The notes below the pieces were generated by a model that saw only the letters and a program-made list of their open reading frames with translations, ran no database searches and was not told the DNA's origin. Position numbers and translations under genes: made by a program. This document shows, piece by piece, positions 993-26,188 of a stretch of 64,000 bases of DNA (its first letter is position 1; each line of letters begins with the position of its first letter). Location: NCBI GenBank assembly GCA_947476045.1, contig CANJNZ010000009.1:9564-73563 (forward strand), given 5' to 3'. This stretch comes from Chthoniobacteraceae bacterium (GTDB lineage Bacteria > Verrucomicrobiota > Verrucomicrobiia > Chthoniobacterales > Chthoniobacteraceae).

Positions 993-995
993 AGC

Positions 996-1514: not shown

Positions 1515-1723
1515 GCACCAAGGGCAGCGCCTCAAATTTAATACAGGCCATGAAAAACCTCTCAGCGGAATGGCAGCGGTTGAAAGAAGTCTGGCGTGAC
1601 GGGAAGAGCGTGGAGTTTGAACAGAAGTATCTTGATAATTTGCCCGGCGATGTTTCCCAGGCAATCGAGTCGATGGAGGAAGTGGATGCGCTTCTCAAGA
1701 AAGTGAGGGGAGACTGTGAGTAA
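1511..1723 (+). CDS. WXG100-like small helical protein (70 aa)
   Basis: 'EV-W-R-D-G-KSVEFEQKY' (W codon 1592-1594) parallels 'SS-W-Q-D-QEAEKFAEEF' in the 90-aa protein. There is an 8-nt overlap with the GTG start of the ATPase gene. Confidence 0.5.
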   Translation: MSTKGSASNLIQAMKNLSAEWQRLKEVWRDGKSVEFEQKYLDNLPGDVSQAIESMEEVDALLKKVRGDCE

Positions 1724-6277: not shown

Positions 6278-6726
6278 GGGAGCAATTTTCCGACAACGGC
6301 TGAAAGTGTGCGACCATCCGCGCGGCCTGCTGCGCGCTCGCCTGCTGCTTTCATCACCGCGCCCATTTGCGCTTTCGATGTCGCGCCGAGTTCAGTGATG
6401 ACTGCGCGGACAAGCGCCTCGATTTCCTCCTGCGAAAGCGCCTTCGGCAGATAAGCGGAAAGCACATCAGCCTCGCTGCGCTCCTTCGCCACGAGGTCTG
6501 CGCGACCTCCTTTTTCGAAGCTCTCGATGCTGTCCTGCCGCTTTTTGAGTTCCTTGCGGATGATGGCCATCGCCATCGCATCATCCACCGCTTCATCGGC
6601 AATCCCCTTCTCCATCGCCGTCGCTTTCATTGCGCTTTTCAGACCGCGCAGCACGAGGAGGCGGTCAGCAGCGCGCGCACGCATGGCGTCTTTGATGTCG
6701 TTATCGAGTTGGGAAAGCAGGCTCAT
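6274..6726 (-). CDS. GatB/YqeY domain-containing protein
   Basis: Trimmed to the internal ATG at 6726 ('MSLLSQLDNDIKDAMRA...'). The 150-aa product matches the YqeY pattern. The upstream part of the listed ORF overlaps purU and is R/G/A-rich noise. There is a 4-nt overlap with the ispD start. Confidence 0.85.
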   Translation of the reverse strand: MSLLSQLDNDIKDAMRARAADRLLVLRGLKSAMKATAMEKGIADEAVDDAMAMAIIRKELKKRQDSIESFEKGGRADLVAKERSEADVLSAYLPKALSQEEIEALVRAVITELGATSKAQMGAVMKAAGERAAGRADGRTLSAVVGKLLP

Positions 6727-6758
6727 GCGTTGGACACTAGCGGCGGCGGGGGGCGGCC

Positions 6759-7613
6759 TCAATCTCGAAAGACGACTGTGCGTTTGCCGTGCAGAAGCAC
6801 GCGATCCGCGAGATGCCAGCGCACTCCACGTGAAAGCGCCTGCCGTTCGCAATCGCGACCCAGCCGCAGCAAATCCTCCGTCGAGTGAAAGTGCTCCACG
6901 CGGATTACCTCCTGTTCGAGAATCGGCCCGGCATCCAGTTCCGCCGTCACGTAATGGCAGGTAGCGCCGATCAATTTCACCCCGCGCTCCCACGCCCGCT
7001 GATACGGATTTGCCCCTACGAACGATGGCAGGAACGAGTGATGGATATTGATCACGCGACCCTCCCAACGCGCGCAAAGATCCTCAGGCACCACCTGCAT
7101 GTAGCGCGCGAGCACCACAAGATCCGCGCCTGCCTCCTCCCACAGCCGCTCGATCTTTGCGAAAGCCGCGGTCTTTCCCTCCGCGCTCACCGGCACGTAG
7201 TGAAAAGGAATCCCCTCCCGCTCGACGACTTCGCGAAAGTCCTCGTGGTTCCCAATCACACACGCGATATCGCAGCCCAATTCCCCCGCCCTCCAGCGCC
7301 AGAGCAATTCCGAAAGACAATGCCCAAGCCGCGAAACCATGAGCACCGCGCGCATCTTGTCGCCCTCGCGGCGGATGCTCCATTGCGCGCCCAGTTCCGC
7401 AGCGACTGGCGCAAATACCGCGCGCAATTCTGCCAGCGGCATCCGCAGCGTCTGCGTCTCGATTGCCATCCTCGTGAAAAACCAGCCCGCCTCCAAATCG
7501 GTGAACTGATGCACCTCATCAAGATTTCCTCCGTGCTCTGCAATGAAAGCCGTGAGCCGAGCAAGCAGTCCCACGCGATCGGGACAGGAGAGCTTTAATA
7601 GTGTGGCGGGCAT
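6759..7613 (-). CDS. purU: formyltetrahydrofolate deformylase
   Basis: The N-terminal ACT-like segment 'LLKLSCPDRVGLLARLTAFI' is followed by a formyltransferase core ('VLARYMQV', 'INIHHSFLPSF'). I preferred the ATG at 7613 over the listed TTG at 7649. Confidence 0.85.
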   Translation of the reverse strand: MPATLLKLSCPDRVGLLARLTAFIAEHGGNLDEVHQFTDLEAGWFFTRMAIETQTLRMPLAELRAVFAPVAAELGAQWSIRREGDKMRAVLMVSRLGHCLSELLWRWRAGELGCDIACVIGNHEDFREVVEREGIPFHYVPVSAEGKTAAFAKIERLWEEAGADLVVLARYMQVVPEDLCARWEGRVINIHHSFLPSFVGANPYQRAWERGVKLIGATCHYVTAELDAGPILEQEVIRVEHFHSTEDLLRLGRDCERQALSRGVRWHLADRVLLHGKRTVVFRD

Positions 7614-7833
7614 GGCAGGAGTGAAAGCGGACGATGACCGCGCGGGCAACCCGTTTTGTGTGGTAGAGCGAAAGGCTGCGTCGATTTCCTTTCAGACGGC
7701 CAGCGTCCCAACATCGGCGGCATCAGCAGGCGGAACCCGCGCAATTCACCTGCATGTCTCATACGCAGCAAAGAGAGTGTTGTCGTGCGTCTTTCCTTTT
7801 CCGTGCGGCCCCGTTAGGATTCCTCCTCAAATC

Positions 7834-10317
7834 GTGTCAGAAAACGCTGAACCAACAACGCCCAAGCCCGCGGCAGCCATCAAGCCCGTCGCGCCCGCTG
7901 AAAAACGTCCGATCCGTAAACGCGGATTTGTCGCAAAACTTCGTCTGCTCTTTTTGTGGCTCCTGCTATTCGTCTGCATTGCGGTGCAGGCCCCCGTCTT
8001 TCCCTGGATTGTTCGACTCGTCGTCCACATCGAGGCGTGGCGAAAAGGTTCGGAGATTAGCATCGGTTCAGTCGAGGGAAGTATTTTTGACCCCATCGTC
8101 CTGAGAGACACCATCTTCACCTACCACTCCGAAACCGGGGCAGTGACACGCATGGAAGCACGGCGCGCACGCGCAACATTTGCATGGAGCAATGTCTTCC
8201 CAGAGCCCGTCAGCAACTGGGTGCGTAACAGCGCCAGAGCACTCGGTCTTGCCACCATCGGACGCAACAACGTCTGGTGGCAGCGACTTGAACTCGATGG
8301 AGTCAGCGCCAAACTCACACTCCCCACCGCGCTCACGAAGGAACCGGCCACTTCGCGTCGCTTGCTGCGCTCACAGTTCGGCGAAGGTATGCTCCACCCG
8401 CCGCTTTATCTCTCTGTGCGCGATACGGAGTTTGTCATCGAGCGCGGCAGCGATTTTCTCCATGCGATTGGACTGCGGTTTTCGCTCAGTGAAATTGAAC
8501 CCGGCAGCGCACGCGCCTCGCAACTCAGTTGGAACCTCGGCGGGCTCACCAAAAGTTTCCGCGACTTGCATGGCAGTTCCACTCTCCAGCAGTCGCGCGC
8601 AACCATCGCCGGCCTCTCACTCGCGCCGGATGTCCGTGTGGAATTCTTTTCAGTAAATCTCAGCGACCTCGCAAAGGGCCGACTCACCCTTGCAACCCAG
8701 CTTGCTGCATTCGGCGGCACCGTGAACGCGGAGGCCGAAACCGCACCGCACGGACGGGAACTGCACTTCGATGCAGATGGCACTTTTGAAAACATCAATG
8801 TCAGCGGTCTCGCCACTTTTCTCGGCCTCAGCGAGGCAGCCGGAGGGTTGGTCAAAAATGGAAACTTCATTTATCGCGGTGCCCCCCGCGATCCCGCGCA
8901 CGCCGAAGCCCGGCTCAATTTTGAAGCAGGCAATTTCCAATGGGAAACACGCCAGTGGGACTCACTCACCCTGCGACTCTCCCTACTCGATCAACGGCTC
9001 CAAATCCCCGAATTGAAACTCCGGCAGGGCGTAAATCAGCTCGGCCTCAGCGGCAGCATGGCGTTGCCGAAAACCGGCACGTCGTGGTGGCAGCGGCAGT
9101 TCGACTTCAAAGTGGATGCGGACATCCACAACCTCACAGACCTCTCTGCGCTCGTGCTTCCGGATTTCAAATTTGCAGCGGGGCAACTCTTCGTTCGTGG
9201 CTCTGTCAGCGGCTCCGGAGCCGAAGCCCCGGCTATTCCGACCTTTGACGGGCAGCTTATTTTCAGCGGCAGCAACATCAAATGGCGCACCTCACCACTC
9301 GACGTGCTCAACGCAGCACTCGTCTTCCGGGGCCACGAACTACAGGTGATCAACGCCCAACTCCTGCATGGCGACGACTACTTTCGAGGCGTGGGCCGTA
9401 TCAGCCTATCCGGCGATGGCGGCTACGAGGGTGTCATACGAACCTCAGTGCGCGAACTCGCGATTTACCAGCCCCTGCTCGCTGCACCCGTGCTGCCGCT
9501 GCCCCTCGCCGGCAGTGCCCTCATCGACTGGCGCGGGAACGGCCTGCGGCAAAAACACGAAGGCACATTCACTGCGCAGTTGGAGAAAGTTCACACCCTG
9601 GGCGGCCCGGGCCTGCAAGCCACGCATCCGCTCAATGCCAGCGTTTCCGGGAGCTACGCTGGCGAACAGATGCAGTTTGATAAATTCGAACTCAGCGAAG
9701 GCTCTACCACACTCAGCGCAGCCGTAGGCATCGGACCCAGCGCAGTGAATCTCCGTTCCCTACGCGTGCAACACAAGGGCCAGCCATGGCTTCAGGGCGA
9801 TGCGATGCTTCCGCTGGATCTCTGGCAGCGCTGGCCGGATGTCGATTTCTCACACCTCCTCAACAACGACACCGTCGCCCGTGTAAATCTCACCGCCACC
9901 GACCTTGGACTGCGGGAAACCGCGCTGCTCACAGGCATCGAGTGGCCACTCGCCGGCACGCTCAACGGCACACTGACAGCCGACGGCGCGCTCAAGTCCC
10001 TCAAGCTTGGCGGCGCACTCACACTCGCCAAAGGCACACTACCGCTGAATTGGCACGGCACTACCGTCACCGACGTGAACAGCAGCTTCACGCTCGACGA
10101 GTCCGTCGTCACACTCACCAAAGCCAGTGGCCGCTACGCAAGCGGAGCATTCACCATGGAGGGTAAACTGGACCTCTCCAGTGCCCGTAAACCGCTGATC
10201 GAATCAACCGGCGCCGGCACCAACAACGGCCAGCCCTTCAGCTTTAAACTCAGCGGCCCCGCAGAAAAACCAGTCCTAACCACCGAAGGTCCCGCCCCTT
10301 TCGCTCCTCCGCAGTAA
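7834..10317 (+). CDS. large membrane-anchored beta-rich protein, TamB/AsmA-like (tentative)
   Basis: A single N-terminal hydrophobic anchor 'LRLLFLWLLLFVCIAV' is followed by ~750 aa of beta-rich sequence. The C-terminus recalls the TamB/DUF490 pattern. The start is uncertain: the listed 7543 start overlaps purU, and GTG 7834 is one in-frame candidate. Confidence 0.45.
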   Translation: MSENAEPTTPKPAAAIKPVAPAEKRPIRKRGFVAKLRLLFLWLLLFVCIAVQAPVFPWIVRLVVHIEAWRKGSEISIGSVEGSIFDPIVLRDTIFTYHSETGAVTRMEARRARATFAWSNVFPEPVSNWVRNSARALGLATIGRNNVWWQRLELDGVSAKLTLPTALTKEPATSRRLLRSQFGEGMLHPPLYLSVRDTEFVIERGSDFLHAIGLRFSLSEIEPGSARASQLSWNLGGLTKSFRDLHGSSTLQQSRATIAGLSLAPDVRVEFFSVNLSDLAKGRLTLATQLAAFGGTVNAEAETAPHGRELHFDADGTFENINVSGLATFLGLSEAAGGLVKNGNFIYRGAPRDPAHAEARLNFEAGNFQWETRQWDSLTLRLSLLDQRLQIPELKLRQGVNQLGLSGSMALPKTGTSWWQRQFDFKVDADIHNLTDLSALVLPDFKFAAGQLFVRGSVSGSGAEAPAIPTFDGQLIFSGSNIKWRTSPLDVLNAALVFRGHELQVINAQLLHGDDYFRGVGRISLSGDGGYEGVIRTSVRELAIYQPLLAAPVLPLPLAGSALIDWRGNGLRQKHEGTFTAQLEKVHTLGGPGLQATHPLNASVSGSYAGEQMQFDKFELSEGSTTLSAAVGIGPSAVNLRSLRVQHKGQPWLQGDAMLPLDLWQRWPDVDFSHLLNNDTVARVNLTATDLGLRETALLTGIEWPLAGTLNGTLTADGALKSLKLGGALTLAKGTLPLNWHGTTVTDVNSSFTLDESVVTLTKASGRYASGAFTMEGKLDLSSARKPLIESTGAGTNNGQPFSFKLSGPAEKPVLTTEGPAPFAPPQ

Positions 10318-10326
10318 CTCAACGCA

Positions 10327-10761
10327 CTATTCGCGGTGGTAGGGTGTGCCGGCGTTGATGGCGCGGGCGCGGTAGATTTGTTCGAGGAGGAGGAGAAGGG
10401 CGAGTTCGTGCTGGAGGGTGAGTTTGCTGAGGGAGAAACGGAAGTCGGCTGTGGTGCGGAGAGTGTCGGTGTGGCCGTCTGCTCCGCCGATGAGGAAGGT
10501 GATTGCTTTGGTGCGCTGCATTTCCCACTGCGCGATGCGGGCGGCGAGTTCTAGTGAGGTGAGTTGCTGGCCGCGTTCATCGAGGAGGATGCGCAATGTT
10601 CCTTCGCTACGGTCGAGGAGCGCTTCGCTTTCCTGTTCGCGCGTGGAGGCTTTGATATGTTCGATTTCGATGCCTTTGCCGAGGCGTCCGGCGTATTCAG
10701 CCACGCCTTCGCGGGCGTAGGGGAGTTTGGGTTTTCCGATGGTGAGGATGCGGAGGCGCAC
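10327..10761 (-). CDS. rlmH: 23S rRNA (pseudouridine1915-N3)-methyltransferase
   Basis: 144 aa, GTG start. 'ITFLIGGADG' and 'LSKLTLQHEL' are SPOUT/YbeA-family motifs. Confidence 0.9.
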   Translation of the reverse strand: MRLRILTIGKPKLPYAREGVAEYAGRLGKGIEIEHIKASTREQESEALLDRSEGTLRILLDERGQQLTSLELAARIAQWEMQRTKAITFLIGGADGHTDTLRTTADFRFSLSKLTLQHELALLLLLEQIYRARAINAGTPYHRE

Positions 10762-10771
10762 GGATTAATTT

Positions 10772-10840
10772 CGGATTTGGGATTTCGGATTGCGGATTGC
10801 GGCGGTGTTTTCCAATCCGCAATCCACAATCTGAAATCCG
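10772..10840. repeat. 28-bp imperfect inverted repeat built from tandem GGATTNN heptamers (long hairpin between rnr and rlmH)
   Basis: The left arm (10772-10799, cggatttgggatttcggattgcggattg) pairs with the right arm (10813-10840) at 24 of 28 positions by hand alignment. The loop is 13 nt. GGATT occurs 5 times on the left and AATCC 3 times on the right. Confidence 0.7.
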
Positions 10841-10843
10841 CAA

Positions 10844-12739
10844 TTATTTACTGAGTGTGAATTCGATTTCTCGCTGCTCGGCGTCCACACGGCAGACGTG
10901 GACTTGGAGGATGTCGCTGGTTTTGTAGGCGAAGTTGGTGCGGCGGTTCACGAGGCGGCTGCGTGCGCTGTCGAGGGCGTAGGGGCCGTTTGGGAGGAGG
11001 CTGACGGGGATGAAGCCGACGGTGTCCACTTCGGGGATTTCGATGAGGAGGCCGTGGGGTTTGGCGTCGGTGATGATGGCGCGGAAGGTGCGCGGATCGC
11101 GGGCGTCGAGCTGGCGCTGGAAGTATTCCATTTTCTTGAGGCGGACGCTGTCGCGCTCGGCGTCGGAGGAATTGCGTTCAGTGGTGCTGAGATGCTCGGA
11201 GATGTCGGCGAATTCTTTGCGCCCGCCACTGCGTTCTCCGGCGAGGACGCGGTGCGCAACGAGGTCGGCGTAGCGGCGGATGGGGCTGGTGAAATGGAGG
11301 TAGTCGGCCTTGGAAAGTCCGTAGTGTCCGACAGCGTCGGGACTGTAGGTGGCGCGGCGGAGGCTTTTCAAAAATTCGATTTTAATGCGGTGTTCGTCGG
11401 GGCGTCCGCGCAAAGCGGCGAGCATCCGCTGGACTTCCTTGCGCTGTTTCAGATCGCTGACACGCAGGCCCTGCACGGCGGCGAACTGGCGGAATTCTTC
11501 GAGGCGCGTGGGGTCCGGCTTTTCGTGGATGCGATAGATGCACGGGGCGGGGCGGTTTTTGATGGCGTGCGCGACGGCTTCGTTGGCGGCGAGCATGAAC
11601 TCCTCGATGAGCTGGTGGCTTTCGTCGCTCTCGATTCGCTCGATGCGGTCGGCGCGTCCGTCGGCATCGAGGAAAACTTTGACCTCGGGGAAATCGAGAT
11701 CGAGCGAGCCTGCGGCAAAGCGGTGTTTGCGAAGCATGGATGCGAGCTGCCACGCGGTGCGGACGGCTTCACCGACTTCGGGGACAAAGCCCTGCACTTT
11801 CTCGCCACGTAAAAGCGCCATGGCTTGCTTGTAGGTGAGGCGTGAGTGAACGCAGATGACGGTCTTTGCGAAACGGACGCGTTTGATTTTTCCAACACTG
11901 GTGAACTCGATGAATGCTGTGTGTGCGAGTCGCTCGACTCCTGCGCGCAGCGAGCACAAGTCGGCGCTGAGTCGCAGTGGGAGCATGGGGATGCAGCGGT
12001 CGGCGAGGTAGGTGGAGTTGCCGCGCTTGCGGGCTTCGCGGTCGAGAGCGGTGCCGGGGCGGACGTAGTGTGCGACGTCAGCGATGTGAACGCTTAGCCG
12101 CCAGCCGTCGCGCGTTTTTTCCACGCAGATAGCGTCGTCGTGATCCTTGGCGTCGTCGGGATCAATTGTGGTGACGAACTGGTTGCGGCAGTCTTCGCGT
12201 TTTGCGATTTCAGCGGCGGGGATTTTATCGGGAAAGGACTCCGCTTCACGCATGACGGCGGCGGAAAACTCTATGTCGAGATTGTAGGCGCGAATGACAG
12301 AAAGCATGTCCACGCCGTTGTCGGTAGCCGCGCCGAGGAGTTCGACGATCTGGCCGGCCGGGGAGACGTTGATGTTTGTCCACGGCTCCATTTTCAAAAC
12401 GATCTTGTCACCAGCGCGCGGAGGACGTTGCAGCGATGGGCCACCGGTGCGGATGAGGAAGTTGAACGGAATGCGTGGGTCGTCGGGGATGAGAAAGGCG
12501 TTTCCTTTCACGCGCTGGAAAGTGCCGACGAATGTATTGTGTGCGCGGGTAATGACGCGAGTGACGCGGGCGCGGTCGCCGCCGATGCGTTTGCATTCGA
12601 CGGTGTCGCCGGGGAGCGCGGTGGAAGTTTCCTGCACCCACGCGATGAGTTTGTCGTCGCCGCCGATGAGGCGCGCGCCGCCACCGCGACGGTTGAAAAG
12701 TAGTGTGCCGGTAATTGCGGCGTTTGGTTTATTGGACAT
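10844..12739 (-). CDS. rnr: ribonuclease R (RNB-family 3'-5' exoribonuclease)
   Basis: 631 aa. RNB catalytic motif 'DPDDAKDHDDAI', a cold-shock-like N-terminus and an S1-like C-terminus. Confidence 0.9.
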   Translation of the reverse strand: MSNKPNAAITGTLLFNRRGGGARLIGGDDKLIAWVQETSTALPGDTVECKRIGGDRARVTRVITRAHNTFVGTFQRVKGNAFLIPDDPRIPFNFLIRTGGPSLQRPPRAGDKIVLKMEPWTNINVSPAGQIVELLGAATDNGVDMLSVIRAYNLDIEFSAAVMREAESFPDKIPAAEIAKREDCRNQFVTTIDPDDAKDHDDAICVEKTRDGWRLSVHIADVAHYVRPGTALDREARKRGNSTYLADRCIPMLPLRLSADLCSLRAGVERLAHTAFIEFTSVGKIKRVRFAKTVICVHSRLTYKQAMALLRGEKVQGFVPEVGEAVRTAWQLASMLRKHRFAAGSLDLDFPEVKVFLDADGRADRIERIESDESHQLIEEFMLAANEAVAHAIKNRPAPCIYRIHEKPDPTRLEEFRQFAAVQGLRVSDLKQRKEVQRMLAALRGRPDEHRIKIEFLKSLRRATYSPDAVGHYGLSKADYLHFTSPIRRYADLVAHRVLAGERSGGRKEFADISEHLSTTERNSSDAERDSVRLKKMEYFQRQLDARDPRTFRAIITDAKPHGLLIEIPEVDTVGFIPVSLLPNGPYALDSARSRLVNRRTNFAYKTSDILQVHVCRVDAEQREIEFTLSK

Positions 12740-12910
12740 GAAAAGTTTAGGGGGAGGTTGTTGTTGAAATCGCTCAGCGGGATGCTGGCGGAGGATGGCG
12801 AGAGGCGACTGTCACTGCGCTCTGCCGAGCCGAAGTCCGGAGACTAGATACAGAAAACGGCCCGCTGTCCACAACGGCCTGCTTTTCCATGCAATCGGAG
12901 ACCTCGCAGC

Positions 12911-13819
12911 CTAGGACATTTTGACCTGAGATTTGATGATGAGGGTGAGTGCGCGGATAGCCAGTTCCTGAATATTGAAAGGCTTTGCGAGGAATTCGTT
13001 ACCACCGCGCAGGGATGATTCGATTCGATTTTCCTGCGAGGCATTTCCTGTGAGAAAGATGATGGGCGTCTCTGCGTGGAGAGCCATATTACGGATGTGC
13101 GTGCATAGCTCAAAGCCGTCCAGATCGGGCAGCTGCACATCAAGGATGATCAAGTCGTAGCGACTGCCCGAAAGCTCGGCGACTGCGGCACTGGGGTGCG
13201 TCGTAACCTTGCTCTTGAGGCCGACGCTTTTCAGCCCCTCCGTTATCATTTCGCTGACGGAACGATCGTCATCCACAGCGTAGATGCGGGCTGTTGCGAG
13301 TTTCACCCGGCGCTCCAGATCGCGCTCCTTGAGCAAGGCGGCGAGGAAGTCGATGGTTTGGTTCAGCGTGCGCAGCATCAGCGGAGTTATCTGCTCGGGA
13401 AGTTCATAAAGTTCCTGCAAGAGTGATGCGAAGGCGGCGCTCACACGATGCAGGACGCCCTGGCCGGATTTTCGGGCACGGTCTGCGAAGCTCTGGACCT
13501 GTGAGGAAAGTTCGTTGAGTTGACTCAAATCATCGGGCTTGCGGGAAAGCGCCTGAAAGCAATGACGCATTGCACCGATGGCGTTGCGTTCATTCTTGTC
13601 GGTCATTTTTTCGGCCAGCGAACTGGACTTCGCAGATTCCGCTTCGTCTGTTTGCATCTCATCTTCGGGGAGCAGATGCTCGTCCTCCACAGGCTGTGCC
13701 ACCGGCATGCTAACGGGCCGTGCACCGCGCTTGGCCATGATGCGGGCCTCAGCAAGGCTGGCACCCATTTCCCGAATCGTGCGCTGTGCGTTTTCCAGTT
13801 GCGAGGATACCTCGATCAT
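12911..13819 (-). CDS. response regulator with C-terminal receiver domain and an Hpt-like helical N-terminal region; probably the 3' part of a longer frameshifted gene
   Basis: Receiver motifs are 'VDDD', 'LIILDVQLPDLDG', 'IIFLTG' and 'LAKPF'. The helical region 'LHRVSAAFASLLQEL' is only tentatively Hpt-like. The reading frame stays open and coiled-coil-like for at least 50 codons upstream of the ATG. Confidence 0.8.
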   Translation of the reverse strand: MIEVSSQLENAQRTIREMGASLAEARIMAKRGARPVSMPVAQPVEDEHLLPEDEMQTDEAESAKSSSLAEKMTDKNERNAIGAMRHCFQALSRKPDDLSQLNELSSQVQSFADRARKSGQGVLHRVSAAFASLLQELYELPEQITPLMLRTLNQTIDFLAALLKERDLERRVKLATARIYAVDDDRSVSEMITEGLKSVGLKSKVTTHPSAAVAELSGSRYDLIILDVQLPDLDGFELCTHIRNMALHAETPIIFLTGNASQENRIESSLRGGNEFLAKPFNIQELAIRALTLIIKSQVKMS

Positions 13820-15567
13820 TTCCAGACGATGCGCTTCGTATTGCTTGAAAAACTGCTGGTGCTCCTCTGATTTGCCCTGCGCTTTTTCCAGTTCCTCTTT
13901 GAGCTGCGCGATTTCTGCACGACGCTCCTTGATCTGCGCGTCATATGCGATTGCGTTGCGCTGACATGCTTTTTCACGGTGTCCCGCTCGCGAATGATGT
14001 ATTCGATTTGCTTTTGTGCAGCGATCAATGAGTTCCGGGTATCTTCGAAGGCTTGTGAGTTTCCGCCATTCTCATGCTCGGCGAGTTCAGCCCTGAGTTC
14101 TGCTTCGGCCAGCCGAAGCTGGATTTCCTTATCCTTCTCCTCCATCGCGCTGACGACTTCGTTCAGCGTTTGAATCCGGTTTTCACGCTGCGCCAATTCC
14201 GCCTGAAACTGCTCGTTGGTAGAATTTGCGGACAACAGCGTGCTGCGGGATTCCTCATACTCCGCCTCACGTTCAAGAATGTGCTGGCGGGCGGCGTCAC
14301 GCTCTTTGGTGGCAACTTCGTTTTGCTGCTTTGAAAGAGCGAGTTGCGTTTCGTAAGCCTTTCGCAATTCGTCGAGTTTACTGCTGAATTCGCCAATTTC
14401 AGCCTCGCGCTCTTTGGAGAGTATGTCGATTTCTAGGCGTATTTCGTTAACCTCTGCTTCGTGTTCTTTGTTCGCCAAGTCCTGCGCTGCACGCAACGCC
14501 TTGAGTTCGGAGTTCAGACGCTCATCCACCTCGTTGTGTGTGGCGTTCTTTTTTTTCTGAACCTCCAGTTCAGCGGATAGCTCCTGAATCTTTTTTACCT
14601 GTTCGACATTGGTGCCGGTGGCTTCCTCGACCTGTTTTCGCAAGGCATTTGCTTCAGCCTCAATCTCCTTCAATTGCCCCAGACCGGCATCGCGCTCGCC
14701 GGCAGTCTGCTCCAGTTTTGCGCGCAGTTTCTCTAACTCTTCCGCAGCCTGCTTTGTCGCTTTGTCAGCGATTTCAAAATCGTATCCAAGATTTGCTATC
14801 TGATCTTCAAGCTCGCCGATGCGGTTTTTCAACTCCGCGACCTGTGTAGCCGAGGCATCACGAGCGAGCCGGAGTGCTGAGAATTGTTTCTGAATTTCAG
14901 CGTCTATCTTCTTGGCGTCGCCGGTATTCTTCTTTGCATTGAGAAGCGTCTTCTGCGCCTCCGCGAGCTGGCGATGACTCTCTTTGAGTTTTGCCAATGC
15001 CTCTTCCTTGTCCTTGTCCGCCAGATCACGCTGGCGCAGAATGGAGTCGCGCTGTTTCACCGTCTCATCTCGTGACGTTAAACAGTCCCTCAATTGCGCA
15101 CTTGTGTCGCTGTGAAGCTTTACTGTCTCCTCCCGCTGACGGAGGGCATCGAGTCGCTGGCGTTCGGCGGTTTCCAGTTTCTTTTTTAACTCACCGATGG
15201 TGGTCTCGTATTGTTGCTGTTGTTCGGAAAGGGTATCACACTCCCGTTCTAAAACATTGATTTTTCTTTCAAGTTCGAGTGCGGCATTTGCGCGATCAAG
15301 TGAACGTGTCAGTTCGTCAATTGCATGATTGCGCTCTTCCTCAGCTACTCGCTGCTTTGCGCGCGCTTCGTTCAGTGAATCCTGAAGCTGCTCGATGAAA
15401 TTACGAACCTCTTTCGTCGGATCTCGATCGGCGTTGGCTATATTTTCTGAACCTGATGGAAATGCGGGGCTGCGACGTTCTTCATCGCCTGTCGGAAAAC
15501 TGGAAATTTTTGCTGAATAATGGGCCATGTAGGACCACCTCAAACGGGTTGGCGCTTGAGTGGGCAT
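13816..15567 (-). CDS. long coiled-coil protein (583 aa as listed); the last 50 codons look out of frame
   Basis: About 480 aa of E/K/Q/L/R heptad-like sequence. The tail 'HVSATQSHMTRRSRS...' is R/S-rich and not coil-like. There is a 4-nt overlap with the downstream receiver ORF. Confidence 0.7.
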   Translation of the reverse strand: MPTQAPTRLRWSYMAHYSAKISSFPTGDEERRSPAFPSGSENIANADRDPTKEVRNFIEQLQDSLNEARAKQRVAEEERNHAIDELTRSLDRANAALELERKINVLERECDTLSEQQQQYETTIGELKKKLETAERQRLDALRQREETVKLHSDTSAQLRDCLTSRDETVKQRDSILRQRDLADKDKEEALAKLKESHRQLAEAQKTLLNAKKNTGDAKKIDAEIQKQFSALRLARDASATQVAELKNRIGELEDQIANLGYDFEIADKATKQAAEELEKLRAKLEQTAGERDAGLGQLKEIEAEANALRKQVEEATGTNVEQVKKIQELSAELEVQKKKNATHNEVDERLNSELKALRAAQDLANKEHEAEVNEIRLEIDILSKEREAEIGEFSSKLDELRKAYETQLALSKQQNEVATKERDAARQHILEREAEYEESRSTLLSANSTNEQFQAELAQRENRIQTLNEVVSAMEEKDKEIQLRLAEAELRAELAEHENGGNSQAFEDTRNSLIAAQKQIEYIIRERDTVKKHVSATQSHMTRRSRSVVQKSRSSKRNWKKRRANQRSTSSFSSNTKRIVWK

Positions 15568-15617
15568 ATTTGAAAATAGCAGAGGCTATGCCCAAGCCGG
15601 ACACTGTTGTTAACCGC

Positions 15618-16007
15618 TCACACTCCGGCGACCTGCCAGCCTTCTTTTTCTAAAAAAGCGCGGACTTTTTCAGGCTGATCTCCCTGCATCTCTATCGTGC
15701 GCCCTTTCAGTGTCCCGCCCGTCCCCAGCGCCTGGCGCAGTCGTTTTGCGAGCATCTCCATTTCAGGCGCGGTGATTTCCGGTGGAAAATCATGAATGAC
15801 CACCACCGCCTTGCCACCGCGATGCGCTGTCTCCCGCCTTAAAACGATACGCCCGAAACGCCGTGGTTTTTGCGGCTCCGCCGGCTTTACCGCAGGGGGC
15901 GCGGCAGGAAGCGGCCCAAGATCAAGGCCGTCGAGCACACTGCCAAACCCGGCTAGACCCTGCTGGGCGGGATTGATTTCGACTCGCTTGTTTTTTTCAG
16001 GACGCAT
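15618..16007 (-). CDS. SUI1/YciH-family translation initiation factor-like protein
   Basis: 129 aa. 'GRIVLRRETAHRGGKAVVVI' and 'GGTLKGRTIEMQGD' fit the SUI1 fold pattern. Confidence 0.8.
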   Translation of the reverse strand: MRPEKNKRVEINPAQQGLAGFGSVLDGLDLGPLPAAPPAVKPAEPQKPRRFGRIVLRRETAHRGGKAVVVIHDFPPEITAPEMEMLAKRLRQALGTGGTLKGRTIEMQGDQPEKVRAFLEKEGWQVAGV

Positions 16008-16129
16008 GGCGTTATGTTTGCTTGCAGGATGGATGTGCTTTTTACTCAGAGAAACTGCAACTCCGATACAAAAGCAGCGTTTTACAAATGAATAAACACG
16101 GCTAGCATACCGTCACAAGCGGCACTTCC

Positions 16130-16888
16130 ATGCATCGACTCTTTAAATTCCTCAGCGCAATCCTGCTGGTCGCAGCCACCCCGCTCAGCGCACAAGACGT
16201 CAACTTGCCGGCGCCCATCGGTGCGGACTTGACCAAAAAGTTTCCGTATTCGATGGCGGGGCAGCTCATCTTCTCCAGCGGCGACAATAACTATCAGGGC
16301 AGCGGCACTGTGATTAACAAACTCAGCGTGCTCACCGCCGCGCACAACGTGTGGGACGCCGACAGCGGCTGGAGCTATGATGTGGAATTCAACCGCGCGC
16401 GCAGCGGTCAGCAAATTGCCACGCGCACCATGGCGTCACGCGTCTTCGTTTTCGGAGGCTATCAGGGTGTCGCAGCGCGCTTTGGCGCGGATTCCGTGCG
16501 CGCTTTTGCATACGACCTAGGTGGCATTCGTTTCAAGACGATGCCCGCTGCGGGTTCATTCGCAGGATGGAAATCCGACCTCTCACTCGTCACGGGCGAC
16601 ACTTACAATATTTGCATCGGCTACGGAGCCGACACGCATACCGGCGACGACATGCTTTACGTCGAGCCGAACCTCAGTTTCTACCAGACCTACAGTGCTT
16701 TTTTTGAAAACGACACGCTCACTTTCGAAGGCGGCATGTCAGGCGGTCCCGTTTTTGCGGAAGTCGCTCCGAACGATCTTAGAATCGTCGGTGTGATAGT
16801 CGCGGGCAGCGACGATCCTCCAACGGGCGGCATCCGCGCAATCAATGCATCGGCCTCCCGCTTCATCTCCGTCTATCTGCGGTTTTAA
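16130..16888 (+). CDS. secreted trypsin-like (S1 family) serine protease
   Basis: Signal peptide 'MHRLFKFLSAILLVAATPLSAQ'. Catalytic His context 'LTAAHNV' and Ser context 'GMSGGPV'. Confidence 0.8.
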   Translation: MHRLFKFLSAILLVAATPLSAQDVNLPAPIGADLTKKFPYSMAGQLIFSSGDNNYQGSGTVINKLSVLTAAHNVWDADSGWSYDVEFNRARSGQQIATRTMASRVFVFGGYQGVAARFGADSVRAFAYDLGGIRFKTMPAAGSFAGWKSDLSLVTGDTYNICIGYGADTHTGDDMLYVEPNLSFYQTYSAFFENDTLTFEGGMSGGPVFAEVAPNDLRIVGVIVAGSDDPPTGGIRAINASASRFISVYLRF

Positions 16889-16924
16889 TCAGCGGCGTCG
16901 CCGTAAAGACGACGCTATTTCACG

Positions 16925-18046
16925 GTGAAAAAATCCCGTCCGTTTGTAATTCTAGCGCTGCTCTTTCTCCTCGCAGCCATCGGAATCTGGCTCAACGGGC
17001 GGATAAAAAACCGCACGACCACCGTGCGACAAACAGCGCCAGAGACCAGGCCCGAAAGTGCTGGCGCCGACAACGCGAAGGCCGCAATCCCGAACACAAC
17101 GCAAGACCTCTCCCCTGACGCTCAACTCACGCGGATTCTGGAAAAACTCCGCACCGGCACGCTCGCCCCCGGTGAACTCGACGCCTTCCGTCGCTCACTT
17201 CTCACGGCAGACCCAGCGCAAGCCATTGCCGCCATCGTAAAATTCCTCGCCACCGGACAGGACGCGCTCACGAGCGAGCAATTTACCCTCGGCAAAGGCG
17301 GGGAACTCGGGGGCGCACCCACACTCCGCGTTCTCCTCCTCGATATACTCGGGCGGATTTGTAAAACCACAAAGGGCAGCGAGGCGGCGACCGTTGCCCG
17401 CGACCTGCTCGAAAAGAAAACCTCCGCCGACGAATGGGTTGTCGCGCTGCGCAACGTTGGATGGCACTCGCCCAATGACCGCACTTTTCTCGCCGCCAAA
17501 TCGCGCGAAATGCTGCACTATCAGCCATGGCGCCAGCAGCCGAGCAGCGGCTTTTTCGAAGTATTCGATGTCATCGTCTTCTCTCGCGATGCCACTTTCG
17601 TCACCGACCTCGCGGAAATTGTTCGCGGTGAAGATAAATCACTTCAGCGCAGCGCTGGCATGGCCCTCGACCGCCTCGCAGAAATGGCCCCGCTCGACGT
17701 GATGAATTTTCTCAATACCAACCGCGTTGAACTCGCGGACAAGCCCTTCCTGCGCGCAGACTATTTCAGCAAGGCCGACCTCTCACAGCCCCCACAGCGC
17801 GCAGCAGTCGAGTCCTACCTCGGCCGTCTGGACGTGACGGAGCGCGAGAAAAGTAAACTCCTCGCCGTGCTCGCAAGCCCCGGCAGCTTCGCGGCGGATA
17901 CGATCCTCACCGAGCCACCGCCCGCCGAAGACCCGCCACAGCGCAGCGCAGGTCTCAAACAGGCCGTTGATGATTGGTTGAAAACCGGCCGCTTTCCGGA
18001 ACTCAGCCCCTCCCTCCTTCAACTCCAGGAACGCCTCGCGCAATAG
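16925..18046 (+). CDS. membrane-anchored hypothetical protein, helical-repeat (HEAT/ARM-like) appearance
   Basis: GTG start. N-terminal anchor 'FVILALLFLLAAIGIWL', then an alpha-helical repeat-like sequence. No family recognised. Confidence 0.5.
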   Translation: MKKSRPFVILALLFLLAAIGIWLNGRIKNRTTTVRQTAPETRPESAGADNAKAAIPNTTQDLSPDAQLTRILEKLRTGTLAPGELDAFRRSLLTADPAQAIAAIVKFLATGQDALTSEQFTLGKGGELGGAPTLRVLLLDILGRICKTTKGSEAATVARDLLEKKTSADEWVVALRNVGWHSPNDRTFLAAKSREMLHYQPWRQQPSSGFFEVFDVIVFSRDATFVTDLAEIVRGEDKSLQRSAGMALDRLAEMAPLDVMNFLNTNRVELADKPFLRADYFSKADLSQPPQRAAVESYLGRLDVTEREKSKLLAVLASPGSFAADTILTEPPPAEDPPQRSAGLKQAVDDWLKTGRFPELSPSLLQLQERLAQ

Positions 18047-18051
18047 CGCCG

Positions 18052-18423
18052 CTAGGCCTCGCGCCGCAAACGCACGGCGACAAACTCCGTATCCGGCAAA
18101 ATATATTTGCGCACCTCCACCTCCACCGCAGCGAGTGGGTAGCTTGAGAGTAATAACGTGGCGATATCCTCCGCCAGTGTCTCCACCAGCAGCCTCTGCC
18201 CCTCCGCAGCGAGCGACTTCACTGCGCGCGAAACCGCATCGTAGTCCACTGTGTTTTCCAGCGCATCCCCGAGGCTCTTGAGATCGCGGCGCGGCTCCAG
18301 AACAAGCGACACCCGGAGTCGCTGTGGCCGCTTTCTTTCTTCCTCAAACGCGCCGATGAACGCTGATACTCCGAGCTGTGAAATGATAATCTGGTCGCGC
18401 ATCGCGCCACGCTGAATCCCCAT
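18052..18423 (-). CDS. folB: dihydroneopterin aldolase
   Basis: 'IIISQLGVSAFIGAFEEERKRPQRLRVSL' and 'TVDYDAV' match the FolB pattern. I chose the ATG at 18423; the ATG at 18402 is equally possible. Confidence 0.85.
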   Translation of the reverse strand: MGIQRGAMRDQIIISQLGVSAFIGAFEEERKRPQRLRVSLVLEPRRDLKSLGDALENTVDYDAVSRAVKSLAAEGQRLLVETLAEDIATLLLSSYPLAAVEVEVRKYILPDTEFVAVRLRREA

Positions 18424-18441
18424 CGTGCGTTCGGCAATCAA

Positions 18442-18798
18442 TTACCCAACGCGAAATTTCACATCCCGCACTGTGCGTCCGAAACGCAGCTTCAGCTTTT
18501 TCACAATCTCTGGCCGCCACGTCCGCTCCAGTTCGAAATGCATCGATGGCTGGAGCACGCGCACATAAAGCACACCCTCGACGAGCTTCAGCGGCGCCGA
18601 GTGCTGCGCGAGAAAGTCCCCGACCACCTCGCGCCATGCGGACACAACCTCCTCTTCGCGCATCCGCTCCCCGAGCCCAAGTTGCACGATCAGCTTCGCC
18701 ACGAGCGCGCCCACGGGCTTCGAAGTGTCCTGCGGAAACGGAGTCTCCGGCAGTCCCCTCCACTCGGCGATCACACGCGCTCGAAGCTGTGGTTTCAT
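18442..18798 (-). CDS. DUF721/DciA-like protein
   Basis: 118 aa. 'VSAWREVVGDFLAQHSAPLKLVEGVLYVRV...SMHFEL' fits the DUF721 pattern as I recall it. Confidence 0.65.
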   Translation of the reverse strand: MKPQLRARVIAEWRGLPETPFPQDTSKPVGALVAKLIVQLGLGERMREEEVVSAWREVVGDFLAQHSAPLKLVEGVLYVRVLQPSMHFELERTWRPEIVKKLKLRFGRTVRDVKFRVG

Positions 18799-18860
18799 GC
18801 ACGCAGTGTTTGCGAAAAGAGACGCCTCACGCGATAAAATTCCTCCATCATCGCCGAAAC

Positions 18861-18890
18861 AAAAAGCCCCCGCCTATCAAGGTCGGAGGC
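18861..18890 (-). terminator. candidate intrinsic terminator downstream of the ferredoxin gene
   Basis: Stem gcccccg (18866-18872) pairs with cggaggc (18884-18890) at 6 of 7 bp, followed on the minus strand by TTTTTG. Confidence 0.45.
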
Positions 18891-18920
18891 ATTTTGAAAA
18901 ATAATGCGGCGTTTCGCGAC

Positions 18921-19154
18921 CTACTCGCCGTCGTTGCCGATGGCTTCCACCGGGCATCCGTCCATGGCCTCTTTGCAAAGCGCTTCTTCGGCAGGATTTT
19001 CGGGCTGCTTGTAGAGATAGCTGTGACCGCCATCATCATTGCGTTTGTAATTCGCCGGTGCCGTCTCACGGCACAGGTCACAATCAATGCACTGGTCATC
19101 CACGTAGAATTTCCCCTGCACGTTTTCCGGATATTTGTTCGCTTGGTCTGCCAT
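18921..19154 (-). CDS. small ferredoxin (single [4Fe-4S]/[3Fe-4S]-type)
   Basis: Trimmed to the ATG at 19154 (77 aa). Cluster ligands 'CIDCDLC' plus a distal 'CP'. Confidence 0.8.
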   Translation of the reverse strand: MADQANKYPENVQGKFYVDDQCIDCDLCRETAPANYKRNDDGGHSYLYKQPENPAEEALCKEAMDGCPVEAIGNDGE

Positions 19155-19286
19155 ATTAAAGGGCGCGCAAATTAGCGACCATCCCTGAGAGGGCAACGCA
19201 TTTTTTTGGGAATGCAAATAAACACAGGACACATGTTCTGACTATGGAGTTTCATTTTCCAGCGCGCCGGCATAAGCTCGGAAAAC

Positions 19287-19937
19287 ATGAGCATTTTCAT
19301 CACGGGCACGGACACGGCGGTCGGCAAAACACGCGTGGCGGCACTGCTGGTGCGTGCGTTGCGTGAAGCAAGGGTTGATGCAGTTGGATTCAAACCTGTC
19401 TGTTGCGGAGGGCGGGAAGATGCGGAGGCGCTCGTGAGCGCGAGCAAAGATGCGGTGACTTTGAATGATGTGAATCCCGTGTGGCTGCGCCCGCCCGTGG
19501 CTCCTTATACAGCGGCGATGATCGAGGGGCGGGTGGTGGATGTGGCGCTGGTGCGCGAGACTTTTTCACGACTGCGCTCGGCACATGCGGCGGTGATTGT
19601 GGAGGGTTGCGGAGGATGGCTGGTGCCGGTGGCGCAGGATTTTTCGATGGCGGATCTGGCAGCCGAGTTTGCGCTGCCGGTGCTGGTAGTGGCGGCGAAC
19701 CGGCTCGGAGTGATTAATCACACGCTGCTCACAGTGGCTGCCATCCGTGCCCGGGGGCTGGCGTGTGCGGGAGTGCTGTTAAATCAAGTGCAACAGCCCG
19801 CGCCCAATGATGCGGCGGTGCTGACGAACGACGCTGTGTTGGAGGAATTACTCGATGTGCCCGTGCTGGGTGAGTTGGAGTTTGGAAAAGATACGCTGCC
19901 TGCGGACTTGTTATCGCGATTGGGGACGGTGTCGTGA
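19287..19937 (+). CDS. bioD: dethiobiotin synthase
   Basis: 'IFITGTDTAVGKT' P-loop and 'GFKPV'. Length is 216 aa. Confidence 0.9.
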   Translation: MSIFITGTDTAVGKTRVAALLVRALREARVDAVGFKPVCCGGREDAEALVSASKDAVTLNDVNPVWLRPPVAPYTAAMIEGRVVDVALVRETFSRLRSAHAAVIVEGCGGWLVPVAQDFSMADLAAEFALPVLVVAANRLGVINHTLLTVAAIRARGLACAGVLLNQVQQPAPNDAAVLTNDAVLEELLDVPVLGELEFGKDTLPADLLSRLGTVS

Positions 19938-19970
19938 AGATGGTGATTGATCGCCCGCTCACAAGGGTGC

Positions 19971-20741
19971 ATGGGCTTTTCGCCTGTGAATCCTTACGAG
20001 ACTGACAAGTTCCTGAATGAATATCTGCTGTTTCACTACGGCGCAGCGGATGAGGTGCTTCCTTTTGCGAACGGGCCGCACGATGCGCTGGACTATGCGG
20101 TGCGCTGTGTGAGCCAGTGTGTGGATGCGACGAAGTTGGCGCCCGATGCGCGCGGCCTTGATGTGGGCTGCGCGGTAGGACGCTCAACATTTGAACTGGC
20201 TCGTTTGTGCAAGGAAGTAATTGGCATCGATTATTCCCAGCGTTTCATCGATGCAGTGCGGGCTCTCGCCGGATCGGGCTCCCTGCCATATCTGAGAGCG
20301 GATGAGGGCGCGCTGAATATGAAATTGATGGCACATTTACCATATGGCATTGCTCCAGAGCGTGTGCGTTTTGAGCACGGCGATGCGCACGCTTTGCGGG
20401 ATGGGCTTGGCGTTTTCGATGTGGTGCTGGCTGCGAATCTGGTGGATCGACTCGCGCAACCGTCACGTTTTCTGGCGCAATTGCCGCGACTCGTAAAACC
20501 GGGCGGGCAACTCATCATCACGACTCCATGCACCTGGCTTCCGGAATACACTTCGCCGGATCACTGGCTTGGCGGTTTCGTTGCAGATGGAAAACCGCGT
20601 TCGACGCTCGACGGTCTGCGCGCCGCGCTGGCTCCGCATTTTTCACTCAGCAGCACGCGCGACCTGCCTTTCCTCATCCGCGAGCACGCACGCAAATACC
20701 AGTGGAGCATGGCGCTGGCGACAACATGGCAACGGCAATGA
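19971..20741 (+). CDS. class I SAM-dependent methyltransferase (resembles stand-alone OvoA C-terminal-type methyltransferases, from memory)
   Basis: Motif I 'LDVGCAVGRSTFEL', post-I 'VIGIDYS' and 'VKPGGQLII'. The N-terminal 'YETDKFLNEYLLFHYG' is what reminds me of the putative 4-mercaptohistidine N1-methyltransferase family. I chose the ATG at 19971. Confidence 0.7.
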   Translation: MGFSPVNPYETDKFLNEYLLFHYGAADEVLPFANGPHDALDYAVRCVSQCVDATKLAPDARGLDVGCAVGRSTFELARLCKEVIGIDYSQRFIDAVRALAGSGSLPYLRADEGALNMKLMAHLPYGIAPERVRFEHGDAHALRDGLGVFDVVLAANLVDRLAQPSRFLAQLPRLVKPGGQLIITTPCTWLPEYTSPDHWLGGFVADGKPRSTLDGLRAALAPHFSLSSTRDLPFLIREHARKYQWSMALATTWQRQ

Positions 20742-21328
20742 ATACAGATTGGGAGAAACGCTACATCACCGGAGAGACGCCTTGGGAAAAGGGGGCGCCG
20801 CATCCCGCGCTGGTCGCATTCGTAAAGAGTGCGCCGGTGCGCGGCAGAGTCTTTGTCCCCGGCTGCGGGACCGGGCATGATGTGCGCGCACTCGCTGCAA
20901 CTGCGGATGAGGTTCTGGGCCTCGACATTGCGCCTTCCGCCATCGCTGCGGCGAAAAGTCAGCCGCAAATCGGTGGCGAACGCTTTATGCTCGGCGACCT
21001 TTTCGCGTTGCCTGCGGAGATGCGCGGTTATTTCGACTGGGTCGTGGAGCACACTTGCTTTTGCGCCATCCCTCCGTCGCTGCGCCCAAACTACGTGCGT
21101 GCCGTGGCGTCTGTGCTAAAAGCAGGCGGCCACTTACTGGCGGTATTTTATTTAACCCCGGATATGGAGCCGGGCGAATCCGGTCCGCCCTTCGGCGCGA
21201 CCGTCGCCGAACTGGACAAACTTTTCACCCCCTATTTCACCATGGAAAAAGAATGGAGCCCGCCCGCGACTCATGCAGGAAGGGAAGGTAGAGAACTCTG
21301 CCGACTGCTCGTGCGGTGCTCAGCGTAA
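20726..21328 (+). CDS. thiopurine S-methyltransferase (TPMT)-family SAM methyltransferase
   Basis: 'W..RY..GETPWE', 'VFVPGCGTGHDV' and 'VLGLDIAPSAI'. The start is either ATG 20726 or ATG 20738; the latter forms an ATGA overlap with the upstream stop. Confidence 0.7.
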   Translation: MATAMNTDWEKRYITGETPWEKGAPHPALVAFVKSAPVRGRVFVPGCGTGHDVRALAATADEVLGLDIAPSAIAAAKSQPQIGGERFMLGDLFALPAEMRGYFDWVVEHTCFCAIPPSLRPNYVRAVASVLKAGGHLLAVFYLTPDMEPGESGPPFGATVAELDKLFTPYFTMEKEWSPPATHAGREGRELCRLLVRCSA

Positions 21329-21329
21329 A

Positions 21330-21908
21330 CTACGCCGCCTTGGCTTTCACTTCGTGCCCAAGCATCTTCAACGCTTGTTCAAGCAGTTCGACTTCGAGAG
21401 GCTTCTTTAAAACGGTCACAGGTCCGTGCTTAAGAATGTTGTCGAGCATCTGACTGTCCGGGTAGCCGGTAATGATAATGATGGGCATCCCGGGATGCAG
21501 CGCCTTCGCTTGTTTGTAGATTTCATCCCCAGTGATGTCCGGTAATTGGAGGTCCAGGAAGCAAAGGTCGAATTTTTGTTTACTCAACGCGGCGAGGGCT
21601 TCTTTACCAGTGCCGACTACGATGCGGGTGAATCCCTGCTTTTTCAAAAAGAGCTTAAACATGCTCTGCAAGCCGATGTCATCGTCCACAACCAGAACGG
21701 TCGGCGCTCCGCCTTGCTCTCCTTCATTGCGAAGGACATCACGATCGAGCATGTCGCGTTTTACGCGCCAGCGTCCACCGATTTGGACTGCTGGAAGTTG
21801 TCCGCGCTGGACGAGGTAGTAAACCGTGGGCAACGGAATGCGCAGATAGGCTGCGGTTTCCTTCACGGTCATCAAGTTATGATCAGACATGGCGCTTTGG
21901 TTGGGCAT
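21330..21908 (-). CDS. DNA-binding response regulator with N-terminal excisionase/MerR-type HTH and C-terminal receiver
   Basis: HTH 'MTVKETAAYLRIPLPTVYYLVQRGQLPAVQIGGRWRV'. Receiver motifs 'LVVDDD', 'LCFLDLQLPDITG' and 'IIIITG'. The start is ATG 21908 or 21890. Confidence 0.8.
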   Translation of the reverse strand: MPNQSAMSDHNLMTVKETAAYLRIPLPTVYYLVQRGQLPAVQIGGRWRVKRDMLDRDVLRNEGEQGGAPTVLVVDDDIGLQSMFKLFLKKQGFTRIVVGTGKEALAALSKQKFDLCFLDLQLPDITGDEIYKQAKALHPGMPIIIITGYPDSQMLDNILKHGPVTVLKKPLEVELLEQALKMLGHEVKAKAA

Positions 21909-22006
21909 TTGAAAATAGCAGTTCAGCGCTTGCTGCGATCGGTGCGCAATTTGCCCAACTACCAGTGTGGTGTCAACGCGTGATTGTGGTATTTCTAGAT
22001 TCGGCG

Positions 22007-22753: not shown

Positions 22754-22917
22754 ATGAACAAGCTGGTCTTTCATTTTGGAGCCGGACCTCAAAAAGAATT
22801 AGCTGAAAACTTTGTGAGCTTAGCAATTTTTACTTCCCATCTGAGCGCCCTTCGTAAAAAAGATGTCACTGATTTATTCCTGACGGAAAAAGCGTTTACC
22901 AATCTGCCCTAGGTGCC
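22754..22917 (+). promoter_or_regulatory. AT-richer intergenic region upstream of the pilus-like cluster (probable promoter/leader)
   Basis: 164-nt non-coding gap, visibly more AT-rich than its surroundings, immediately 5' of five co-oriented, tightly packed genes. No specific -35/-10 could be assigned. Confidence 0.3.
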
Positions 22918-23493: not shown

Positions 23494-23519
23494 TCTGGAA
23501 ATTTTTCGCAGGCAACCGA

Positions 23520-26185: not shown

Positions 26186-26188
26186 GCC

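Follow-up and report, generated by a model that had tools for sequence, protein, structure and literature searches.

A probable lineage-specific single-nucleotide deletion, with no sign of programmed frameshifting, splits a conserved coiled-coil and receiver gene of Chthoniobacterales

In Escherichia coli dnaX, a -1 frameshift takes place at the heptamer A_AAA_AAG, which is accompanied by an upstream Shine-Dalgarno-like element and a downstream hairpin, and frameshifting also links orfA to orfB in the insertion sequences IS1 and IS3. The combination of a receiver domain with a long coiled coil is found in the Myxococcus proteins FrzS and AglZ. In Sulfolobus solfataricus, the fucA1 gene comprises two open reading frames (ORFs) that are expressed by -1 frameshifting, with a full-length product shown experimentally (PMC1616953). 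We analysed a gene of a Chthoniobacteraceae bacterium contained in a 64,000-nucleotide (nt) stretch of contig CANJNZ010000009.1, hereafter called the window, whose positions are used throughout. Two overlapping minus-strand ORFs, the first coding for a coiled coil and the second for a receiver (REC) domain, were interpreted in a first-pass annotation as one gene interrupted by a -1 frame change at an AAA-AAG lysine pair, possibly through a sequencing error, a recent pseudogenising indel, phase variation or programmed frameshifting. Comparison with related loci led us to the conclusion, held with good confidence, that the gene is otherwise conserved and has undergone a genuine lineage-specific 1-nt deletion, which is an ordinary frameshift with no sign of programmed frameshifting.

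13816..15567, minus strand: ORF1, 583 amino acids (aa) as first delimited, overlapping ORF2 by 4 nt
12911..13819, minus strand: ORF2, 302 aa, containing the remainder of a long helix, an acidic disordered linker, a four-helix bundle and a receiver

The ORF2 frame, at -1 relative to ORF1, is open upstream as far as a TGA at 14072-14074. Its reading is coiled-coil-like from about 13957 and continues as ...ACQRNAIAYDAQIKERRAEIAQLKEELEKAQGKSEEHQQFFKQYEAHRLE-MIEV into ORF2, confirming the earlier description of a stop-free, coiled-coil-like -1 frame upstream of 13819, which we found to be conserved across the family. The receiver assigned to ORF2 was likewise recovered, as a PF00072 match in a Pfam scan. 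A -1 slip made by hand at AAA-AAG produced an uninterrupted 885-aa translation, as had been claimed, and a protein database search returned seven single proteins that align with the hand-fused window protein over 98-99% of its length.

P0001: 872 aa, 88% identity to the hand-fused window protein
P0002 to P0005: 874-880 aa, 60-65% identity to the same protein
P0007 and P0008: 773 and 777 aa, with 38% and 34% identity, respectively

A scan of species-representative genomes revealed 25 further loci, all from Chthoniobacterales or 'Spartobacteria' and including Chthoniobacter flavus Ellin428. One open frame spans 97-100% of the match at 23 of these 25 loci, so that the orthologue comparison proposed in the first-pass annotation yielded the fused form almost throughout. 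Because full-length relatives align across the junction, the relationship reflects homology and not chance, and their single frame indicates that the fused state is ancestral and the two-ORF state of the window derived. As judged from these alignments, ORF1 and ORF2 are pieces of one conserved Chthoniobacterales gene of about 872 aa. The proposal of one gene (872-885 aa) with a -1 frame change was thus upheld by single-ORF relatives that cross the junction, and for annotation purposes the interval 12911..15528 is best treated as one disrupted gene, not as two genes or as a recoding site.

The position of the frame change was derived from the locus (L001) that encodes P0001, the protein of the closest relative, and which aligned with the window by blastn at 88.3% identity over 2802 nt with exactly one gap. 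This gap of 1 nt reads CAGCG-CAAC in the window and CAGCGACAAT in L001.

13958..13959, minus strand: single-nucleotide deletion, coding strand AGC G^C AAC against AGC GAC AAT in L001, that is, an Asp codon minus its A

Counting downstream from the AAG codon, the deleted base is 11 nt away, and it is outside any homopolymer (G[A]C). The junction letters are GCGCAAC in the deletion allele, against GCGACAAC in the intact form (13955-13962). Protein alignment places the break at the same point: relatives read DTVKK-QVSD-NAIAHDAQ, while the ORF1 frame of the window reads DTVKK-HVS-A... and the ORF2 frame resumes at NAIAYDAQ. The ORF1 frame matches the relatives up to HVS, and the ORF2 frame matches them from NAIA onward only. 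Outgroups carry D or E at the deleted codon, all in a single frame; an insertion in L001 instead of a deletion in the window was considered and ruled out, as all outgroups keep this codon position in one frame. The switch point, which had been assigned to AAA-AAG, maps in fact to the A deleted from GAC. It had also been stated that one extra A (A6) would fuse the two ORFs, which is arithmetically true and yet does not describe the ancestor: L001 carries the identical GTGAAAAAGCA in frame, and A5 is therefore the native length. The suggestion of a recent pseudogenising indel was right as to the indel, which lies at the GAC codon and not at AAA-AAG.

The deletion divides the gene into the following parts.

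13959..15528, minus strand: native-frame part of ORF1, from the N-terminal motif MAHYSAKISSFP...DPTKEVRNFIEQLQ through a coiled coil of about 520 aa to ...DTVKKHVS, colinear with P0001-P0008
15535..15541, minus strand: Shine-Dalgarno-like GAGGTGG, read from the sequence, 6 nt upstream of ATG 15528
13816..13959, minus strand: tail of ORF1 translated out of frame, basic and rich in R and S, with 47 residues (ATQSHMTRRSRS...RIVWK) and then TGA
13820..13957, minus strand: orphan segment, 46 native-frame codons (NAIAYDAQIKE...EAHRLE) conserved in the family
13816..13819, minus strand: ATGA overlap of the ORF1 TGA with the ORF2 ATG (13817-13819)
12862..12877, minus strand: terminator-like hairpin with a T-rich tail, about 35 nt past the ORF2 stop, from a consensus scan only

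Loss of the A from the Asp codon GAC, between 13959 and 13958 in the gene of about 872 aa, would shift the ribosomes, which would add 47 unrelated basic residues and halt at the TGA at 13816-13818. The predicted product is a 570-aa coiled-coil protein without the conserved C-terminal helix and the signalling half. At the ATGA, the 302-aa bundle-plus-receiver remainder could re-initiate by termination-reinitiation coupling. The allele is most likely a loss- or reduced-function variant, representing an incipient pseudogene or gene fission.

Several features of the two predicted products are consistent with this scheme. ORF1 had been assigned 583 aa from ATG 15567, a start with no Shine-Dalgarno before it in the sequence. 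Its start is rather ATG 15528 (570 aa), which follows the GAGGTGG element, agrees with the N-terminus of the relatives (MAHYSAKISSFP) and was picked by the gene callers. The shifted reading begins after Ser-536 (583-aa numbering). The tail showed no homology in the shifted frame, the relatives matching the other frame, which confirms that the R/S-rich end of ORF1 is out-of-frame translation, as had been supposed. The orphan segment is translated out of frame only in the split allele and has no start codon of its own, since no ATG, GTG or TTG was found in the ORF2 frame between 14072 and 13819 besides ATG 13819 itself. This ATG corresponds to the native internal Met of the RLEMIEV motif in the subclade and is replaced by Thr in more distant relatives; no Shine-Dalgarno precedes it, only CTGGAA abutting the ATG. 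With no other start and no Shine-Dalgarno, we infer that ORF2, if made, must come by termination-reinitiation coupling, and the N-terminal sequence for ORF2 re-initiated at ATG 13819 would be MIEVSSQLENAQR.

An AlphaFold2 model of the orphan segment joined to ORF2 (mean predicted local distance difference test score, pLDDT, of 84.2) displays one continuous helix over residues 2-78, with pLDDT values of about 81-90 up to residue 70, and the ORF1 stop and ORF2 start fall in the middle of this helix. Outside REC, the most strongly conserved block in the family is RFEKQR[LV]E[MT]I[ED]...AQ..I[RK]E[LM]SA.LAEARL, and the split falls within it as well. Impaired function is expected, because 46 conserved codons are absent from both products and the cut lies within the helix and the conserved block.

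The deletion is present in other assemblies. Six contigs (L002-L007; ENA ERZ27280173 and Logan ERR12084900, ERR12084903, SRR6754086, SRR6754088 and ERR3761205) match the window at 100.000% identity along 5.5-10.8 kb, deletion junction included. In all, 32 blocks of the indexed assembly collection contain the exact 302-aa ORF2 protein, which at least 24 contigs encode. As ERR3761205 is a metagenome of the Rimov reservoir (PMC10244341), the organism is a freshwater planktonic Chthoniobacterales bacterium. Given separate assemblies from separate read sets and the non-homopolymer context, an artefact is very unlikely.

Pairwise ratios of non-synonymous to synonymous substitution rates (dN/dS) were derived against L001, at a dS of about 0.44. 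The ratio was 0.134 for the coiled coil, 0.125 for ORF2, 0.017 for REC and 0.19 for the 47 orphan codons read in the native frame (8 synonymous and 8 non-synonymous changes). The window branch showed no excess of derived residues when these were polarised with four outgroups (11 versus 15, 2 versus 3 and 3 versus 8). Neither the relaxed constraint nor the further disabling mutations expected of an old pseudogene were found (dN/dS 0.13-0.19, no rate excess). This lack of decay probably means that the deletion is recent, which we prefer, or that constraint or function has been retained.

Some points weigh against our conclusion of a recent, ordinary and damaging deletion. The dN/dS of the orphan segment rests on 16 substitutions and fits continued native-frame translation equally well. 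The deletion-bearing contigs are all identical, so that the population is uninformative on the age of the deletion or on selection. A minority intact allele is possible in the population, the evidence here being assembled contigs; the repaired 872-aa protein had no match in an exact look-up, a weak result as the same look-up missed the contig-called 570-aa ORF1. Finally, the making and the function of both ORF products are predicted from sequence. Exact-pattern scans for both alleles (AAAAAGCATGTCAGCG N{0,1} CAACGCAATCGC) gave 0 matches in the JGI metagenome contigs and GTDB species genomes and are silent on polymorphism, because the species is absent from these two collections. Similarly, a protein search with 170 aa centred on the repaired junction found no match, P0001 included, and is uninformative on the intact allele.

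The motif on which the initial interpretation relied can now be set against the position of the deletion.

13969..13975, minus strand: G_AAA_AAG motif, an imperfect heptamer, read in frame and unchanged in L001

Programmed -1 frameshifting at this motif would give one gene two products, a short coiled-coil protein and a longer one for signalling. The sequence has the AAG codon (13969-13971) and the run of five A (13970-13974; T5 on the plus strand) exactly where the first-pass annotation had put them. In favour of such a shift, the AAA_AAG is in frame and 11 nt upstream of the deletion, and the 256-nt zone around it (13816-14072) stays open after any -1 shift; a slip would change only four residues of the ancestral protein (ACQR for HVSD); and A_AAG is shift-prone in E. 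coli, as in dnaX (PMC1851650, PMC5009743). However, no slippery heptamer X_XXY_YYZ was found at the frame-change point, only the A_AAG part fitting and the first base being G. ORF1 contains five in-frame AAA_AAG, about one per 110 codons, and the three perfect A_AAA_AAG sites elsewhere in it (15187, 14596 and 14554) are read through, none being tied to a frame change. ORF1 has 13 in-frame A_AAG in its 570 codons, so that the presence of one a few codons away from an arbitrary point is only a mild coincidence. No shift is needed in the relatives: neither a two-frame layout nor conservation of the slippery site was found in P0001-P0008, 23 of the 25 genome loci being single-frame, and the identical motif sits in frame in the intact L001. 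At the two Lys codons, distant relatives carry K-Q, K-E or R-E, the KK pair not being conserved beyond L001. The proposed search for a downstream stimulatory structure by RNA folding detected none, the minimum free energies of -17.2 kcal/mol for 79 nt (z +0.94) and -27.0 kcal/mol for 119 nt (z +0.48) being no better than those of dinucleotide shuffles, and upstream of the motif neither GGAGG nor AGGAG was seen, only GCGGGA. The homology break is also away from the motif. One frame in the relatives and an unconserved motif make programmed frameshifting, one of the options initially listed, extremely improbable. On the alignments, the AAA-AAG near the break is coincidental, an ordinary Lys-Lys of a lysine-rich coiled coil that predates the deletion, and the value of this analysis is mainly corrective, an apparent slippery-site frameshift being a coincidence. 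A second AAA_AAG is located at 13882..13887 on the minus strand, in frame only in the shifted tail of ORF1 (TGG AAA AAG CGC), and a -1 slip there would likewise rejoin the native frame. A deletion fixed in the lake population could conceivably be tolerated via occasional -1 slips at G_AAA_AAG or at 13882-13887. Such slips would restore the full-length protein with as few as four changed residues, and the signalling form, at full length, would be the minor product beside a predominant truncated coiled-coil protein. The locus would then exemplify, at its very origin, the kind of translational correction of indels in nature that has been discussed under the term 'savior indel' (PMC5009743); nothing favours this reading, and we give it a slim chance.

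The remaining explanations differ from our preferred one, a recent deletion with reduced function, in the status given to the missing base. An adaptive or neutral gene fission would imply that the deletion is fixed and that both halves work as separate proteins, namely a coiled-coil protein that has gained a basic tail and a stand-alone bundle-plus-receiver regulator made via ATGA coupling. The ATGA overlap does coincide with a native Met, the deletion allele dominates six assemblies from different runs, and ORF2 combines intact REC residues with a dN/dS of 0.125 against L001. Yet none of the 23 intact relatives is split, the 46 conserved codons are lost to both products, a single predicted helix and the best-conserved non-REC block are bisected, ORF2 is without a Shine-Dalgarno, and the low dN/dS mostly reflects pre-deletion history; we therefore regard working fission as rather unlikely. 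If instead the organism's gene were intact, the break would be a sequencing or assembly error. Single-base frame breaks are a common artefact, and relatives do show breaks at homopolymers (A8 in L011 versus A9 in L036) or many 1-nt indels (L026), but the base missing here is outside a homopolymer (G[A]C), and the same sequence, base by base, occurs in six contigs, each from a different run or assembly accession, that extend without interruption for kilobases on both sides. The homopolymer error initially envisaged is thereby contradicted, and error of any kind deserves only scant credence. Slipped-strand phase variation, another early suggestion in which the gene would be an on/off contingency switch, is hardly credible at all: the gene evolves much faster than its neighbours (62% aa identity to its counterpart at locus L008, against 76-99% for the neighbours) and several relatives have frame breaks, one at an A9 tract, but the indel is not within a repeat tract, the A5 run is short and equally long in broken and intact genes, and no length variation was observed among the six contigs.

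From N- to C-terminus, the intact protein consists of the conserved motif, the coiled coil of about 520 aa, the long helix, the acidic disordered linker (residues 80-117 of the AlphaFold2 model), the four-helix bundle and a CheY-like receiver.

13328..13600, minus strand: four-helix bundle, degenerate Hpt-like, helices 120-139, 144-163, 167-185 and 192-210, pLDDT > 90
12959..13285, minus strand: receiver (REC), PF00072, E-value 1.1e-22, 80.7 bits (cut-off 30.2)

The receiver adopts a CheY-like fold in the model, with Foldseek TM scores of up to 0.94 normalised to the target, and its phosphorylation residues are invariant in our alignment (A2): D229-231 (DDD pocket), D273 (LILD), T303 (FLTG) and K325 (AKPF). 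The best PDB profile match of the bundle is the P1 domain of Thermotoga maritima CheA (1TQG and 2LD6), end to end, with E-values of 0.009-0.018. The 'Hpt-like' label given at first was weakly supported by the CheA P1 profile match (E 0.009) and weakened on two counts: PF01627 (Hpt) had no match in the window protein (E up to 0.1) or in nine relatives (E up to 1), and the column of the CheA phospho-His is occupied by Gln in the window protein and by H, Q, E, A or N in the family. The four-helix bundle is probably not a phosphotransfer site. A Foldseek search with the model of the orphan segment and ORF2 was dominated by receiver matches and did not inform on the bundle. Within these searches, the family is confined to Chthoniobacterales. 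It is uncharacterised, combining a coiled coil, a degenerate Hpt-like bundle and a receiver, and a natural truncation allele could inform on its dispensability.

Orthologous loci also contain frame breaks. In a Lake Mendota metagenome-assembled genome (MAG), the orthologue is broken at an A8 run (L011, 4298-4306), where L036 (3259-3268) has A9; the A9 assembly is of the same species (P0003, 97.7% identical) and carries an intact 880-aa gene, so that the A8/A9 difference reflects either an error of assembly or true slippage, the tract being of a length prone to instability. L026 (3700-6400) shows at least nine 1-nt indels against L015, the majority of them in short runs of C or A, and the orthologue of L037 (3695-6050) is called as 361 + 72 + 349 aa. 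The frame breaks of L026 and L037 may be errors rather than pseudogenes, their contig names being typical of long-read assemblers.

Around the gene, a translation initiation factor gene of the SUI1/YciH type (15618..16007, minus strand) is found directly upstream, as at most of the Chthoniobacterales loci examined (L008-L033), so that the two genes form a conserved pair. On the other side, the RNase R gene (10844..12739, minus strand) is 93-98% identical in nucleotides and 99.2% in amino acids to that of L008, from a different Verrucomicrobiia MAG; L009 and L011 were also compared. Its flanking DNA is only about 62-88% identical, the adjoining coiled-coil and receiver gene reaching 62% at the aa level, and the high-identity block starts just past the ORF2 stop. 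This block has the appearance of recent recombination between species or of unusually strong constraint. Further along the window, two giant adjacent minus-strand ORFs of 3190 aa (39846..49418) and 4759 aa (49706..63985) each contain 18-19 stretches of PATR autotransporter-associated repeats (PF12951), with a weak PA14 match in the larger. No tRNA genes and no Rfam families at the gathering threshold were detected in the whole window (1..64000).

Compared with described systems, the locus most resembles an ordinary pseudogene or split gene created by a 1-nt indel: one base is missing relative to all relatives, an out-of-frame tail ends at a premature stop, the downstream remainder lies in the -1 frame, and the deletion is lineage-specific. 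It differs from such pseudogenes in that it has no decay yet and in that the stop lands exactly on an in-frame Met, which makes coupled expression conceivable. With dnaX and IS1/IS3 it shares an AAA_AAG lysine pair near a 0/-1 transition and, in principle, the possibility of a short and a long product; unlike these systems, it has an imperfect heptamer, lacks both stimulators and an equivalent layout in relatives, and changes frame 11 nt downstream of the motif, at a deletion. The likeness to fucA1 lies in a gene that is intact in relatives and split by a -1 change with an A-rich shifty site nearby, whereas the full-length product was demonstrated for fucA1 and nothing points to one for the window gene. 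The bundle recalls Hpt domains and CheA P1 in being a predicted four-helix bundle of about 90 aa directly before a receiver, with CheA P1 as its best PDB profile match, and departs from them in falling below Pfam detection and in having a Gln in the His column, which is variable in the family. Lastly, the window family unites a CheY-like receiver and a very long coiled coil in one protein, like FrzS and AglZ. In this comparison by composition, the window protein differs in its N-terminal coiled coil, its C-terminal receiver and its additional Hpt-like bundle, and the shared likeness suggests that the intact protein could be a localised scaffold controlled by phosphorylation.

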